Assembly (NCBI RefSeq): GCF_016026235.1
Contig: NZ_CP065613.1
Length of the DNA: 64,000 bases
Source: Escherichia coli
GTDB taxonomy: Bacteria; Pseudomonadota; Gammaproteobacteria; Enterobacterales; Enterobacteriaceae
Direction: 5' to 3' (one strand)
The position numbers and the translations under genes were made by a program. Position 1 is the first letter of the stretch, and every line of letters begins with the position of its first letter. The notes under the pieces are model-generated. The model made no database searches. It saw nothing but the letters and a program-made list of their open reading frames with translations, and was not told the DNA's origin. This document shows, in pieces, positions 1 to 8,482 of this stretch.

Positions 1-645
1 GCCAGAGCAAAAAATACTAAAGCTTTCCGTTTCACAAGTCAGGTTAATGACGCTATTAATCCTCCAAAACAACCAAGACAGCCACGAATTAGCGGAAACA
101 GAGCAATCACAGCAGCTTACTCAGCGAATATGAGCAAGCTAAAAGGCTTTGACCCTATTTTGCAGAAATACATCAAATCTCAATTTTACGGGCTATCTGC
201 TAAAGCTGGGGCAATGGATAATTCAAAATTCAATGAGAAGTTAGCTCAGTTAAATGCTTCAGTCAGAGAAGCAATTGCTAAAGCCAGAGGTCATACATCC
301 ACCAGCATTAATGGTGACAGAGCAGCTAGCAGCCTTGATAACCTGTCTTCAGCAGCAGTTAGAGCAGCAGGTGCATTTATCAGCTTTCAGGCTGTACTAT
401 CCGCTTATCAGCGAGTACTGGAAGTTGGTTTACAGCGTGCAAGTGCTGAACGTTCAATTGATTTCGTATTCGGTGACCAAAGTACACAGGTTAAAAAGTT
501 CATTCAGGATTTAACTCAAATTACTGGTATGGACACAACCGAAACACAAGCGCAATTTGCTTCATTTGGTGCATGAAGTGGCACACTGAATTTGGCCACC
601 TGAACAGAGGTGATATGCTCACCTCAGAACAACACAGGTGCTCCA

Positions 646-1814
<1,169 letters not shown>

Positions 1815-3088
1815 CCACTTCAGCAAGTGCAACGACTACGATGGGTCTTGAAGGGTCAGAAGAGCTATTTAAAAACCTTACAGGTTATGCTCGTTTAATG
1901 GGGCGTTCAGATGAGCAGATTCAAAGAGCATTAACCGCAGTGTCACAGATGGCCTCTAAGGGTCAGGTGATGGCTGAGGAGTTGAAGGGGCAATTATCTG
2001 AAGCTTTACCGGGTGCTACTCAGGCATTTGCAAAGGCTTTAGGTCTGACTGAAAAACAGCTTTTCGATAAGATGAAAAATGGTGATGTTAAAGCCTCTGA
2101 TGCACTTCCTAAGTTTGCTAAAGAACTTGGTGCACAGATTAATTCAAGAGGTGGCTGGAAAGCTATTCAGGATTCTACGCAGACGATGTTAGGAAACTTA
2201 AAGAATACTTGGAACAACTCACTAACGGATATTTTCAGAGGTTCTGAAAATGGTCTGCAAGATTTCACAAGAAGCCTAACAACGCTTTTAAACAGTTTAG
2301 GTGGAAGTGGTAAAAGTCTTGGTGAATCTCTTGGTAGCTTGATGAGCGATATGTCGCATGGTGTCGATAGTCTGACTGATATCAGCTACAGGGTGAGAGC
2401 GTTCTTTGATGAGGTGACATTAGCTTACCGTGGTTTAACCGATGAGCAAAAGAAAGTAGTTGATGCTTTAGGTTCTGGCTTGATTAATAGTTTAAAAGTC
2501 TTGGCTGGTGTTATTGCTGTAAATAAAGTTGTTGGTGTAACCAGAAGTATTTACGGGCTTATGACTGCTATCACAAGATTAGGTCAGGTCGCTGATACAA
2601 CAGCGGATAACGTGAATAGAAAGAATGGGAAACCATCAAGATTGAATCTTGGGAATATGCTATTAGCTGGTAGCGCTCTCTATGCAGGTTATGAAAGATT
2701 AGCCTCTACACCTGAACGAATGGAAGCACAAGCTAAATTACCAGAGCTGGCTAAAGAGTCTGGACTTAAACCCGCTTTCACTATGGATGATGTTAAAGGG
2801 TGGTTTAATAGTGCTGCTATGAATCTTGCTAACTTCCAGCATCCAGAATTAAACAACATTAAGCAAGATTCAGCATTAACGAGTGCAGATATCCAAAGCC
2901 TGAGAGATGAAATCTCCGCTTTGAGCAAACGTATTCAGGAGCCTGTGAAAGTTTCACTTGGTGGTGAAGTTGCCATTAAACCAGATGAAACCAGCTTTAT
3001 GACCTTTAGCAGTAATATCTACGACCAATATGCAGAAGCTACGCTATTAAGTTCATCATTCCCAGAAGATGATTAATAATAGTCGAAT

Positions 3089-3143: not shown

Positions 3144-4111
3144 TCACGCTTAACAGAGAAAATACTTATATATCAAAGGAGAATTTAATGATTTACACTA
3201 ATCAGCTTCGTTACACTGGTAAAGATGGCGTTTACTTCCACTTAAGAGATAATGTAGATGCCTTCTTAACCTTATCAGCAACTGAAAACATGGAATTTGA
3301 TAGCCCTATGATGGTTACCACTCAAAATATGCAATCAGGGCAAACCGTCACAGATAATGTTCAAAGAGCACCCAGAACAATTACTATTAGTGGTGTGGTT
3401 GTAGTTGGTGAATCCGGTAGTATCCTTATCTCAAGAGATAATAAGCTGGTAGAAAACTTCATTGACACTCTTGAAAGCTGGCGTGACCAGAAGCAGATTA
3501 TTTCGGTCATCTGTAAAGACGGAATTAAAATTGATGATTCCATTATTACAAGCTTTAAAGCCTCTAAAGATGTTGGTATTTCAAATGGCCTAAGAATCCA
3601 GCTAACTTTTCAGGAAATTAACTTCAAAGCTATTGTGGGTCAAACTGATATTTCGGCTGCAACTGGAAAGACTGCTACCACAAATGATGGTGGTGCTACC
3701 AGTAAAAAGAATACAGGGAACACTACGACAAGTTTAGGTAATGGTATGTTGATGTGTCAGGAGCTATATAATCGCTCTACGAGTGAACTTACTAATGAGC
3801 AACTTCAAGCCCGTATCAATTGTGGTAAAAGTGTCAAAGTTGAGAATGGAAAAAGCACCTTCTCAGATGCCGCTAATGAGCAAGCTTCAAAGGTGCTTAA
3901 TAATGCTGGTACAGGTAGTGCGTATTTTCATGAAAGGAGATCACTCAATAACTTCCATCGAGATCGGGTAATAACATTTGAACAGATCGCTGAATAACAT
4001 CGATGGAGATCACTTTTGACTCATTTTGTTATTCAGTGATCTCCATCAATGTTATTGGAACTTCACAGGTGTGTTGATCTGTATCTTTTGCCATTCCGGT
4101 AAAGGATACCT

Positions 4112-5512
4112 ATGCCAACAGTTCCAATTTCTATGAGAAAACTTAAAGAAATTCTTAGGCTTAAATACGGTGTTGGACTCAGCCATCGACAAATTGGTCG
4201 TAGTCTTGCAATCTCCCCTTCCGTTGTATCCAGATATGCTAATCGGGCGGCTCAACTTGGCATAAAGCAGTGGCCCTTACCTACAGGATGGGATGATACA
4301 AAACTAAAACATGCGTTCCTTCAGACCCAGGTTAAGATGAAGAAGCACTCTCTGCCTGACTGGGCTACAGTACACTGGGAACTGCGTAATAAATGCGTGA
4401 CGCTGCAGCTACTCTGGGAAGAATACTGTGAGCGTAATCCAGGCGGTTTTTACAGCTATAACCATTACTGCCGGATGTACCGTGAATGGCTCAAAACCAC
4501 TTCACCATCAATGCGTCAGGTACATAAAGCTGGCGAAAAACTTTTCGTTGATTACTGTGGACCTACCGTTGGCGTTACCGACCCTGAGACCGGAGAAATA
4601 AGAACTGCTCAGGTCATCGTAGCTGTTCTCGGGGCATCAAGTTACACATGGGCAGAGGCCACCTGGTCTCAGCAGCTTGAAGACTGGGTGATGAGTCATG
4701 TTCGCTGCTTCCAGTGGTTGGGTGGCGTTCCTGAACTTGTTGTTCCGGACAATCTGAAAAGCGCCACATCCAGGGCATGTAAGTATGATCCTGACGTTAA
4801 CCCTACCTACCAGCAGATGCTTGAGCATTATAATGTCGCAGTTTTGCCTGCGCGGCCACGTAAACCGAAAGATAAAGCCAAAGCTGAAGTTGGCGTTCAG
4901 GTTGTTGAACGCTGGATCATGGCCCGAATCAGGCATGAGATCTTCTACAGCCTTGCATCGCTTAATCAGCGCATTCGGGAGTTGCTGGAAAGACTGAATA
5001 ACAAAATAATGCAGAAGTTGGGTTATTCACGTGCAGAACTCTTCATCCAGCTTGATAAACCCGCACTGAAGCCTCTTCCTGAAGCCAGTTACAGTTACAC
5101 CCTGGTGAAGAAAGTCAGAGTTCATGCCGATTACCACGTGGAAATCGACAAACATTACTACTCGGTTCCATGTTCGCTGTTAGGCCAGCAACTGGAAGCA
5201 TGGATCTCCGGAGAACTGGTAAGACTCTTCAATCAGGGGCAGGAGGTTGCTGTGCACCCGCGCAAGCGTACTTATGGCTACAGTACCCGCAACGAGCACA
5301 TGCCTGAAGCTCATCGACAGCATGCCACCTGGACGCCAGAGCGTCTTCTGGAATGGGCGGGGCACATAGGCAGTGAAACTCATAGTTATGTGCTTCATAT
5401 ACTGAACTCTCGTCCACATCCGGAACAAAGCTATCGCTTCTGCCTTGGACTCCTGAACCTTCATAAAAATACAGTAAAGCCAGACTTAATGCAGCATGTG
5501 CAAGAGCTCTGA
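4112..5512 (+). CDS. istA: IS21-family transposase IstA, apparently frameshifted near its 3' end
   Basis: N-terminal helix-turn-helix-like region MRKLKEILRLKYGVGLSHRQIGRSLAISPSVVSRYANRA and a DDE-type body. The ORF stops at 5512, but the -1 frame is open from 5467 to 5652 and ends 12 nt before istB. Confidence 0.8.
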   Translation: MPTVPISMRKLKEILRLKYGVGLSHRQIGRSLAISPSVVSRYANRAAQLGIKQWPLPTGWDDTKLKHAFLQTQVKMKKHSLPDWATVHWELRNKCVTLQLLWEEYCERNPGGFYSYNHYCRMYREWLKTTSPSMRQVHKAGEKLFVDYCGPTVGVTDPETGEIRTAQVIVAVLGASSYTWAEATWSQQLEDWVMSHVRCFQWLGGVPELVVPDNLKSATSRACKYDPDVNPTYQQMLEHYNVAVLPARPRKPKDKAKAEVGVQVVERWIMARIRHEIFYSLASLNQRIRELLERLNNKIMQKLGYSRAELFIQLDKPALKPLPEASYSYTLVKKVRVHADYHVEIDKHYYSVPCSLLGQQLEAWISGELVRLFNQGQEVAVHPRKRTYGYSTRNEHMPEAHRQHATWTPERLLEWAGHIGSETHSYVLHILNSRPHPEQSYRFCLGLLNLHKNTVKPDLMQHVQEL

Positions 5513-5663
5513 AAACAAAGGTATGGCGTCTGTCAGGTATTAAATCGATCCTGGAAAAAGGTCTGGATAAACAACCTGTTCAGGATCCAAAACCAGATCT
5601 GTTATCCACGATGGAACACGAAAACGTACGCGGCAGTGAGTATTACCACTGATACGGGATCCA

Positions 5664-6413
5664 ATGATGAATCATCTTTACGAACAACTGACCGCACTTA
5701 AACTCACCGGCTTCCGTGATGCGCTTAAAAAGCAACTTGCTCAGCCGGGCACATACCAGGAGCTGGGCTTCGAAGAACGCCTGTCATTACTGACAGCAGA
5801 AGAACTAACCTGCCGTGAAAACAGGAAGGCAGAGCGTCTGATCAAACATGCACGGTTCAGACTTAATGCTGAGTTATCAAAGCTGGATTATCGTAACAAT
5901 AGAGGGCTGGACAGGGCCCTCATCCGTTCACTCAGTCAGGGAAACTGGTTAACCCTGAAACAAAATATTTTACTGACCGGGGCCACCGGCAGCGGTAAAA
6001 CGTTCCTGGCATGTGCACTTGGTCATAATGCCTGCCGACAGGGATACAAGGTCTACTATTATCGCCTTAAAGCGCTGATGGAACAGTGCTATCAGGGGCA
6101 TGCTGATGGAAGATACAGCAAACTTTTGACTAGGCTGAATAATAGCGATCTGCTGCTTCTGGATGACTGGGGGCTGGAACCTCTCTCATCAGAACAGCGT
6201 AGCGACCTGCTGGAAATAGTGGATCTGATGTACCAACGAGGCTCAATCATCGTAGTGAGCCAGTTGCCGGTGGAAAACTGGTACAAAATGATCGGAGACT
6301 CCACACATGCGGATGCCATCCTAGATCGACTGGTTCATGGCAGTATCAAGATTGAACTTAAAGGAGAATCAATGCGGAAAATACAATCTCCGTTGACCGA
6401 AGGAGATCAGTGA
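5664..6413 (+). CDS. istB: IS21-family helper ATPase IstB
   Basis: Walker A motif LLTGATGSGKTFLACALG and DnaC-like layout, located immediately after istA. Confidence 0.9.
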   Translation: MMNHLYEQLTALKLTGFRDALKKQLAQPGTYQELGFEERLSLLTAEELTCRENRKAERLIKHARFRLNAELSKLDYRNNRGLDRALIRSLSQGNWLTLKQNILLTGATGSGKTFLACALGHNACRQGYKVYYYRLKALMEQCYQGHADGRYSKLLTRLNNSDLLLLDDWGLEPLSSEQRSDLLEIVDLMYQRGSIIVVSQLPVENWYKMIGDSTHADAILDRLVHGSIKIELKGESMRKIQSPLTEGDQ

Positions 6414-6560
6414 AGGTAATTTAAAAACGGTTCTGTGAAAGTGACACGAACCGATCTCCATCGATGTTACTCACCGATCTCCTTCACGGTAATACGCAGG
6501 TAGTACTTTGAAGAAGTTTAGTGTGAATCCTAACAAGCGATACTGACGATAGAATCTCAA

Positions 6561-8090
6561 CTATATGATAACCTCATCAACATCTATTAAACCCCTCTCA
6601 GTGACTTCAGAAAGCGACTGTATAGCCTCTGTAACGTCCTCTGAGGGGTTTTCTGTTATTGGTAGGTCAATTACCTTACCGTTGTGAAAAGTTACTTTAC
6701 AGCGACGTTTAGCGGCATCTATAACTATTTCTTTGAGTACGCCCTTGATAAGTAGCTGTGTCTCTACCATCCCTTCCTTTGTTGTCCTGTCAATATCTTT
6801 GAGGCTTCCAGTTGTGATGGCCTTTATCCGCTGTGTTTCCTCTTCGATATCATGATTGAGTTTTGATAGCGCATTCTTCATATCACGTAATTTCTCTGTG
6901 ATAATTGTCATGTCATCGAGTTCAATAGCGAGTTCTGCCATTTTTGAGATTTTACGCTGCAAATCTTCACGCTGTAATTTAAGGCTATCAATAGTGTCAG
7001 TATTTTCAGTTTCAAAACGGTCGCATAATGCGAGCATGTAAAGGATAGTTGCATCCGTTTGCTTACGACTGATAGCCTTTGCACTACACCTGTTAGCTGA
7101 ACGATTAGGACATCTGTACATCCCAAAACGTTTTAAGGCATATCCACCAAGAACAATAGTAGCCCCACACTCAGAACATTTGATGATACCCCTGAACAAG
7201 TTGACTGATAGCGGATTACTTGATACAGAAGCCCTACCATATTGCCCTGTGTTCAGTTGCTGTACTCGATAGAATAGTGACTCACTGATTATTGCGGGGT
7301 AGTAACCCTGAACTTCTTCACGTCCAGCAGGTGTGAAACATCCAATCACAGCACGATTTCTGAGTAGTTTCTTTACAGCAGTATCAGACCATCCCTTTTG
7401 TTTAGGTGTGTATTGATTCAATGACAAGTGGCCTTCATCGTTTAAAGTTCTGGTGATAGCCCAAAAGCTTAAACCCTGTAATCTCAGGTCAAATGCTCGT
7501 TTAACAACTTCCACTTTATCGGGGATGATAGTGAATGTTCGACGGTCATCATTCAGCCTTAACCATGCAGGACAACGCCTAGATACCTTGATACCTTCGG
7601 AGATGAGTTCTTTTTTACGGTTCCATGCAGCTTGGACACGCTCAGACTTCCTCAGACTTTCCTCATGCGCCCGCTGCATTATCAGAATGCTTTTAATCAG
7701 GGATAACGGGTCTTTTAAACTTTCTCGTGTGTAATGTTCACCATCGGACAGGGTGACTACATCTACACCAGCCCTTAAGATACGGCGTAATAGCTCAGAA
7801 GCAATATCAATATCCTGACGTGACAGACGGTCTAAACTCTCGATTAGTAGCGTATCACCAGCTTTAACAAGCCCTTTCTCGATAGCGGTTAGAAAGTCAC
7901 CTAGACCACCTTTCAGGTGCTTACCACTAAAAGCACTTTTCCCCAAATCTTTAAAGCTCAAGGATGAATCCAAGTAAAACTCAGGGTTCTTATCAAGCCA
8001 GTCAGTAACCAGCTTAGATTGTCTGCGTACAGAGTCCCCTTTTAGTTGTCGTTCACTTGAAAATCTGATGTAGCTGATTGCCCGTCTCAT
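6561..8090 (-). CDS. Large serine recombinase (phage integrase type)
   Basis: N-terminal resolvase-like catalytic region (AISYIRFSSERQ), a cysteine-rich zinc-ribbon-like segment (CSECGATIV...YRCPNRSANRCS) and a C-terminal extension. ATG at 8088-8090 is preferred over the TTG at 8096 used by the ORF track. Confidence 0.85.
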   Translation of the reverse strand: MRRAISYIRFSSERQLKGDSVRRQSKLVTDWLDKNPEFYLDSSLSFKDLGKSAFSGKHLKGGLGDFLTAIEKGLVKAGDTLLIESLDRLSRQDIDIASELLRRILRAGVDVVTLSDGEHYTRESLKDPLSLIKSILIMQRAHEESLRKSERVQAAWNRKKELISEGIKVSRRCPAWLRLNDDRRTFTIIPDKVEVVKRAFDLRLQGLSFWAITRTLNDEGHLSLNQYTPKQKGWSDTAVKKLLRNRAVIGCFTPAGREEVQGYYPAIISESLFYRVQQLNTGQYGRASVSSNPLSVNLFRGIIKCSECGATIVLGGYALKRFGMYRCPNRSANRCSAKAISRKQTDATILYMLALCDRFETENTDTIDSLKLQREDLQRKISKMAELAIELDDMTIITEKLRDMKNALSKLNHDIEEETQRIKAITTGSLKDIDRTTKEGMVETQLLIKGVLKEIVIDAAKRRCKVTFHNGKVIDLPITENPSEDVTEAIQSLSEVTERGLIDVDEVII

Positions 8091-8094
8091 ATTC

Positions 8095-8130
8095 AATACC
8101 TAAAATGATGTGTTTAGGAACCCATTATAC
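8095..8130. other. Prophage-chromosome junction (attR-type site) within mdtG
   Basis: mdtG-like codons diverge from the recalled K-12 sequence about 8120-8128 and are followed by phage-derived codons MGS and a stop. Inverted repeat CCTAAA-N8-TTTAGG at 8099-8118. Confidence 0.5.
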
Positions 8131-8311
8131 TGAAGACAATACCGGACCACATATTCAGGGCGGAGTGGCCGGTAACGCCAAGCTGCTCAACGTAGAGGGG
8201 TAAGAAGGGCATTACCAGACTGAAGGCGGCACCGGTAAGAAAACAGCCTAGCCAGGCGACGATCAGGTTTCGTTTCCAGTTTATAGGGGTGTCATTTTCA
8301 CAGGGTGACAT
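8114..8311 (-). pseudogene. mdtG: mdtG (yceE) 5' fragment, about 62 native codons, truncated by prophage insertion
   Basis: Translation [62 protein letters not shown] matches the recalled MdtG N-terminus, then ends MGS-stop instead of continuing into the transporter. Confidence 0.85.
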
Positions 8312-8482
8312 AGCAATCCGCTATTGGTGCGCCAGGCGCGGTGAACATAAGAAGAAAAGATAAGCACACTAATTATGCGCCCGACTTCCAGGGGGTGCAA
8401 TCCAGAGAGCTTTTATCGCTAAATCAGGGGGATTTGCTGTGGTAATGCCGGATGCCATTCTGAAGCATCCGGCATGGAAGAT

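Follow-up and report, generated by a model that had tools for sequence, protein, structure and literature searches.

A truncated mdtG gene in Escherichia coli probably marks the right-hand end of a compact island moved by a large serine recombinase

The window analysed here, a stretch of 64,000 nucleotides from an Escherichia coli contig (NZ_CP065613.1), starts inside a mobile island, and the segment under study (positions 8091 to 8311) holds the 5' part of mdtG at the right-hand end of that island. The mdtG fragment, which comprises the start codon and codons 2-61, lies on the minus strand at 8130-8311 and is identical to the intact mdtG of L003 (0 differences over 182 nt); position 8130 is where homology to the uninterrupted mdtG-lpxL locus of L003 ends. 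From this point the reading frame runs on into island DNA, giving a truncated frame of 65 codons (8114-8311, minus strand) of which about the last four (MGS and the stop codon, TAA at 8114-8116) belong to the island. The lpxL-mdtG intergenic region with the native mdtG promoter occupies 8312-8482 on the same strand. On the island side, an intact gene for a large serine recombinase (LSR) of 509 amino acids (6561-8090, minus strand) begins at 8090, in the same orientation as mdtG. The original prediction had placed an insertion inside the mdtG reading frame with a recombinase next to the fragment, and both points were borne out by the 61 identical codons, the end of homology at 8130 and the position of the LSR gene.

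The boundary between the two sequences is formed by a CTGA core at 8130-8133, which is common to attB, attL, attR and the reconstructed attP and lies 40 bases from the start of the LSR gene. The island-side arm of attR, GTGTTTAGGAACCCATTATA (8110-8129), forms an imperfect dyad attP together with the arm at the left end of the island, TATTTGTTCCCTAAATACAC. The same junction was found, identical in sequence, in 22 of 5,426 complete E. coli genomes, the other matching genomes having an uninterrupted mdtG-lpxL locus, and because it recurs in this way it is not a chance match.

The part of the island that lies to the left of the LSR gene carries two insertion sequences. A tape-measure gene, the start of which lies about 224 nt before the window, is represented by a 5' portion (1-574, plus strand) and a 3' portion (1828-3076, plus strand) separated by IS911 (575-1824, plus strand). 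It is followed by a gene for a Dit-like (distal tail or baseplate-like) protein (3188-3919, plus strand), whose 3' end is displaced by ISEc12 of the IS21 family (3920-6496, plus strand), with the remaining 14 codons at 6505-6546. The placement of ISEc12 in these last 14 codons of the Dit-like gene, and not in the LSR gene, follows from an 8-bp target duplication (3912-3919 and 6497-6504) and from a sister lineage (L004) that is free of the element. Compared with other copies, the istA gene of ISEc12 has a 1-nt deletion near position 5465 that leaves an IstA protein of 466 amino acids instead of 513, and therefore this copy is probably not autonomous; look-up of the frameshifted IstA protein returned no record. 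When the Dit-like variant was looked up as an exact protein, the only contigs obtained were 2.3 kb long and flanked by IS elements, and the N-terminus of the tape-measure protein is highly mosaic among relatives. IS911 had raised the suspicion of a Shigella origin, which was set aside: no IS1 is present in the window, and the flagellar and other genes have reading frames of normal length.

The LSR contains a PF00239 Resolvase domain (residues 4-160, E=3.5e-16) with the catalytic serine motif YIRFSSERQ at residues 7-15, together with PF07508 Recombinase and PF13408 zinc-ribbon domains, and residues 244-459 align to the zinc-ribbon and coiled-coil region of the C-terminal domain of A118 integrase (4KIS). 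Judged from its sequence, the protein is a large serine recombinase, having the catalytic, Recombinase and zinc-ribbon/coiled-coil domains as well as a crossover core and an attP dyad. An inactivating lesion was sought and none was found: the identical protein is encoded on at least 23 other contigs, and comparisons with three other alleles from the mdtG site gave dN/dS values of 0.15-0.19 at dS values of 0.035-0.13. The flanking mdtG sequence diverges by 0.3-0.6%, far less than the LSR genes, and the islands therefore represent separate, independent integrations into the same site; the LSR alleles diverged under purifying selection before landing independently in mdtG. Among the 22 carriers of the junction, the LSR gene is uninterrupted in 9, while 13 have no contiguous LSR gene as a result of IS splits and truncations.

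The recombinase and its mdtG attB are already published as Ec07, an LSR from E. coli HAJ7447475.1 that Durrant et al. (2022, Nat Biotechnol; PMC10083194) include, in their supplement, among the LSRs characterised by experiment. The attB listed there for Ec07 is the mdtG site and contains GGTATTGTCTTCAGCATTACATT. Candidates in that study were picked for independent integrations into one site, and Ec07 was among the 17 LSRs of the first batch; 15 of these 17 recombined attP with attB in human cells (PMC10083194). The window protein has the same N-terminus as Ec07 and, over the approximately 400 residues listed, differs from it only at V111I and A347T, both of which are shared with Ec07 by the LSR of a 4.3-kb island at the same site (L021) over the listed stretch; the window and L021 proteins differ at 6 of 509 residues. 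The attP of Ec07 (supplementary file 4) equals the L021-type junction from the 4.3-kb island and is one base off the window arm, whereas the window copy of the Ec07-type enzyme belongs to an island of the 11-kb type into which IS911 and ISEc12 have inserted. In the available text of Durrant et al. (PMC10083194) the enzyme is treated as a genome-engineering tool, and its effect on mdtG is not discussed there. A literature search returned no paper that links mdtG with a serine recombinase or describes prophage integration into mdtG. Within the phage collection, the closest match was YbcK of lambdoid coliphages and the DLP12 prophage, which has the same three-domain layout and aligns over 97% of the length, but with only 37% identity, in a different genomic context and without connection to mdtG.

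In order to describe the island without its IS elements, we refer to three IS-free copies in mdtG: 11.2 kb in GN4751 (L019:4406-15621), 11.4 kb in JNU (L020:3171-14612) and a mini-island of 4.3 kb in NT1F25 (L021:10249-14559). The two larger islands share a gene order consisting of a small serine recombinase, variable small ORFs (Dam and HTH genes, or an HNH nuclease), proteins of 236 and 69 amino acids, the tape-measure protein, the Dit-like protein and, on the opposite strand, the LSR. The 4.3-kb island has the same LSR and att site, with a coiled-coil protein and a small serine recombinase as its only cargo. Islands with the same LSR thus differ in their cargo (11.2, 11.4 and 4.3 kb). Profile searches with Pfam, PHROGs, NCBIfam and PADLOC found no capsid, terminase, portal, lysis or replication family among the island ORFs; the sole virion-type matches were the tape-measure and Dit-like proteins, plus the HNH nuclease. 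On the island cargo, PADLOC gave coiled-coil noise only, and the AlphaFold model of the conserved 236-aa protein (mean pLDDT 58.6) was too poor for a fold search. The original prediction had read the IS-disrupted structural genes as a sign that the element may no longer excise as a phage. The disruptions themselves are real, IS911 splitting the tape-measure gene and ISEc12 clipping the Dit-like gene, but the implied degraded full phage did not hold up, and a decayed full prophage was rejected because the IS-free copies span only 4.3-11.4 kb and have no capsid, terminase or lysis genes.

Apart from the LSR and the att arms, all that the 4.3-kb and 11-kb islands have in common is a conserved non-coding block of about 470 nt. 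This block (~470-700 nt; L021:12300-12830, L019:5930-6420, L020:4700-5180) is ~90% conserved between the mini-island and the 11-kb islands and is rich in repeated CTTAAG/GAGAC-like motifs. It has no conserved ORF and no Rfam match; possible roles are those of an origin, an RNA, or a res site on which the small recombinase would act. Imperfect repeats of ~30 nt flank the small serine recombinase region, in direct orientation in L021 (10436-10469 and 12478-12511) and inverted in L019 (4585-4612 and 6761-6788); these may be the sites of the small recombinase or chance matches. An invertible segment around the small recombinase was considered and rejected, as the genes of L019 and L020 differ in sequence besides orientation, and these differences therefore point to module replacement and not to simple inversion. 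One of the small recombinases, of 183 amino acids, recurs with unchanged sequence in 5,518 blocks of the gene-position index.

Three other locations, in yecE, between tonB and yciI, and beside rutR/ymdF, hold islands that share this architecture but have different LSRs (506 or 547 amino acids). As a family the islands are mosaic and occupy at least four chromosomal sites, with the LSR at one end and the small serine recombinase near the other (L018:5650-17200 and L007:4870-20280 are further examples); most of them carry the tape-measure and Dit-like pair, and their LSRs are 506, 509 or 547 amino acids long. The yecE island splits its gene, and its LSR again lies co-oriented behind the host 5' fragment, while the LSR of the tonB-yciI island is not behind a host ORF fragment. 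The latter island starts ~90 bp from the tonB start codon (L018:5606-5697), in the divergent tonB/yciI promoter region, and might alter the expression of tonB or yciI. Two islands of the family occur together in strain CT265 (NZ_CP095795.1; L014, H10/H92), one in mdtG and one in yecE. A comparison of the family with described satellites and islands gave no match. Known phage satellites (P4-like, PICI, cfPICI, PICMI) were rejected as a classification because searches with Pfam, PHROGs, NCBIfam and PADLOC found no AlpA, primase-replicase, packaging-redirection or capsid match, and because the integrase is a serine enzyme, a tyrosine integrase being the hallmark of the satellites.

The features of this family bear on the first of the alternatives to a simple insertion, namely that the island is a helper-dependent, satellite-like element in which the LSR is expressed from a captured host promoter and a directionality factor from the island or from a helper phage triggers excision for transfer, the repair of mdtG being a by-product. 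The compact conserved architecture (small serine recombinase, non-coding block, tape-measure, Dit-like protein, LSR), its presence with different LSRs at no fewer than four sites, the repeated independent integrations implied by LSR allele divergence, and the co-oriented LSR of the yecE version all speak for such a life cycle. We nevertheless regard it as unlikely, given that no replication, packaging or helper-interference gene was recognised with the four profile collections named above, that the element does not occur in the phage collection, where 37% identity was the best LSR match, that its attP was not in viral contigs, and that the tonB-yciI LSR has no host ORF fragment in front of it.

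The left end of the island falls outside the window, and neither the mdtG 3' part nor attL occurs anywhere in the 64 kb. In relatives, the mdtG 3' part abuts the left end of the island in all six cases with a readable left end (L001, L002, L019, L020, L021 and L010), and the junctions are identical in these six and, as far as it extends, in the window. At attL, the sequence ...AAAATGTAATG CTGA TATTTGTTCCC... has the junction form AAAATGTAATGCTGA followed directly by TATTTGTTCCCTAAATACAC, and the attL junction of a restorable copy would read AAAATGTAATGCTGATATTTGTTCC, then the rest of mdtG and msyB. The corresponding attR is ...GGAACCCATTATA CTGA AGACAATACC..., and the empty site, attB, is ...AAAATGTAATG CTGA AGACAATACC... 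with the junction form AATGTAATGCTGAAGACAATACC. The attP junction is CCCATTATACTGATATTTGTTCC, and the arms of the rebuilt attP, GTGTTTAGGAAC... and ...GTTCCCTAAATACAC, are imperfectly symmetric. CTGA represents the sole bases common to both ends, and attL and attR together give attB exactly, as for conservative recombination without target duplication; the 2-bp crossover must fall inside these 4 bp.

When attL and attR were joined in silico by deleting the island from five relatives, each gave an intact, scarless MdtG of 408 amino acids, in agreement with the earlier proposal that precise excision would rebuild the gene. The rebuilt proteins differ from that of L003 by at most two substitutions (E405Q in all five, S168N in one). 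Since no bases are gained or lost in serine recombination, attL x attR would restore mdtG exactly, and on these sequences a precise repair of mdtG would be possible in principle. The mdtG halves of the relatives are free of inactivating mutations, and the 5' half in the window is likewise undamaged.

From the relatives we infer that attL is still present in the source genome. The competing view is that attL or the mdtG 3' part was lost or moved by an IS rearrangement to the left of the window, leaving mdtG permanently dead. The two IS elements within the visible 8 kb, the IS-driven truncations in the islands of other carriers and the lack of any mdtG 3' sequence in the window are what one would expect from such an event. 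It seems to us improbable all the same, since attL and the mdtG 3' part are intact in every relative in which the left end can be read, and since the attR arm and core of the window match the consensus obtained by comparison with the relatives.

The position of the LSR gene raises the matter of its expression. It starts 23 nt past the stop codon of truncated mdtG, in the same orientation, and terminator prediction gave no candidate site from the mdtG start codon to the LSR start. mdtG is a member of the mar/sox/rob regulon and is induced by SoxS, MarA and Rob, according to the available text of PMC12046405, which cites Fabrega et al. (2010). With no predicted terminator and a promoter under this control, stress-induced read-through from the mdtG promoter into the LSR gene is plausible, and it could be more than chance that the LSR immediately follows a stress-inducible host promoter. 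In the absence of a directionality factor, such read-through would be of no consequence. A perfect TATAAT (8124-8129, minus strand) abuts the core 34 nt upstream of the LSR start and is present in both attR and attP; a promoter rebuilt across attP/attR was rejected, as this TATAAT has no acceptable -35 element in either state.

Large serine integrases that bear a coiled coil need a directionality factor for attL x attR recombination, an example being the LSR SprA of SPbeta, which requires SprB (PMC5499854). The original prediction had allowed for excision by the recombinase alone. This is unlikely because the LSR has a coiled-coil C-terminal domain typical of directionality-factor-dependent enzymes (PMC5499854), and excision of an Ec07-type island would be expected to need such a factor. 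Searches for Xis/RDF-like families gave no match among the island ORFs, although known directionality factors are too diverse for this negative to decide the matter; besides the LSR, no ORF is common to the 4.3-kb and 11-kb islands. The attP junction was not found in assemblies of viral contigs, metagenome contigs, complete E. coli genomes or plasmids, and these negatives too are weak because the metagenome set holds only 3 attR copies and because assemblies rarely catch rare excision products.

These observations weigh on the proposal that the insertion is a regulatory switch, in which a precise and non-killing excision rebuilds mdtG under some condition and may be followed by reintegration, as with SPbeta in spsM or the comK prophage. 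Its appeal lies in an intact LSR within an interrupted ORF, the scarless restoration obtained in silico, the co-orientation of the LSR with mdtG a short, terminator-free distance past the stop, the induction of mdtG by SoxS, MarA and Rob, by which stress could raise LSR levels, and the existence of LSR-based gene-rebuilding switches elsewhere (PMC5499854, PMC5025042). However, no directionality factor was recognised and the two island sizes have no second ORF in common, an LSR by itself would not be expected to act on attL and attR (PMC5499854), and the attP junction was absent from all collections searched. Moreover, the insertion is present in only 0.4% of complete E. coli genomes, and the LSR gene is no longer contiguous in 13 of the 22 carriers; this rarity and damage are the opposite of what a conserved, domesticated switch would look like. 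MdtG is also a dispensable accessory pump. Overall, we consider a switch of this kind very improbable, and the regulatory reading of the original prediction was not supported. A yet more specific version, in which integration placed the LSR under the mar/sox/rob-controlled mdtG promoter and antibiotic or oxidative stress raises LSR levels and, together with an unrecognised directionality factor (candidates would be a small ORF of the island, a protein of a helper phage, or the small serine recombinase that is always present), brings about scarless excision and turns the MdtG pump back on, is likewise very improbable.

By comparison, it is probable that we are dealing here with attR, at the right-hand end of a compact LSR-mobilised island, and that the disruption of mdtG is collateral and not a host control device. 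In this account, the island would have integrated by conservative attP x attB recombination at the CTGA core inside codon 61/62 of mdtG, catalysed by the Ec07 enzyme, whose gene has the orientation of mdtG and begins 40 bases in from the junction. Integration would cut MdtG to a 65-residue stub and thereby switch the pump off, mdtG being damaged because the target of the recombinase happens to lie there. Recombination of attL with attR would restore mdtG exactly if a directionality factor were supplied, although none is recognisable. Reversibility is physically possible as far as can be told from the sequences, the mdtG halves of relatives being undamaged and 9 of the 22 carriers retaining an uninterrupted LSR; the copy in the source genome carries the two IS insertions.

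Our verdict is thus one of ordinary site-specific integration with collateral gene disruption. The mdtG island is a further copy of a catalogued integrase-attB pair, and its reversibility follows from serine-recombinase chemistry. If regulated excision were true, active lysogeny would extend to E. coli and a mobile element would be tied to stress-inducible drug efflux; if the stress-driven version were true, E. coli would have its first example of an LSR-based switch that rebuilds a gene in response to stress. The Ec07-type recombinases belong to widespread, undescribed compact E. coli islands that split or flank mdtG, yecE and the tonB-yciI region, and this island family, with its tape-measure and Dit-like pair, may merit a study of its own.

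The closest known systems are those in which an LSR element interrupts a coding gene, as it does here: SPbeta SprA/SprB in spsM of B. subtilis (PMC5499854) and skin in sigK of Bacillus and Clostridioides (PMC5025042). They share with the mdtG island a conservative recombination, a short core within imperfect inverted repeats and an exact rebuilding of the reading frame. In contrast to the mdtG island, they possess dedicated, developmentally regulated directionality factors (SprB, and CD1234 in C. difficile) in a lineage-conserved arrangement, whereas the mdtG insertion is rare and often decayed, with no directionality factor recognised and no excision junction found in assemblies. The comK prophage phi10403S of Listeria monocytogenes, the model of active lysogeny, is a complete inducible phage whose non-lytic excision under particular conditions has been demonstrated (PMC7397523), while the mdtG element is an island of 11 kb in which just two genes are recognisable as tail-type and for which assemblies showed no excision junction; what the two have in common is the arrangement itself, an element lodged in a host gene that excision restores in phi10403S (PMC7397523) and would restore in mdtG.
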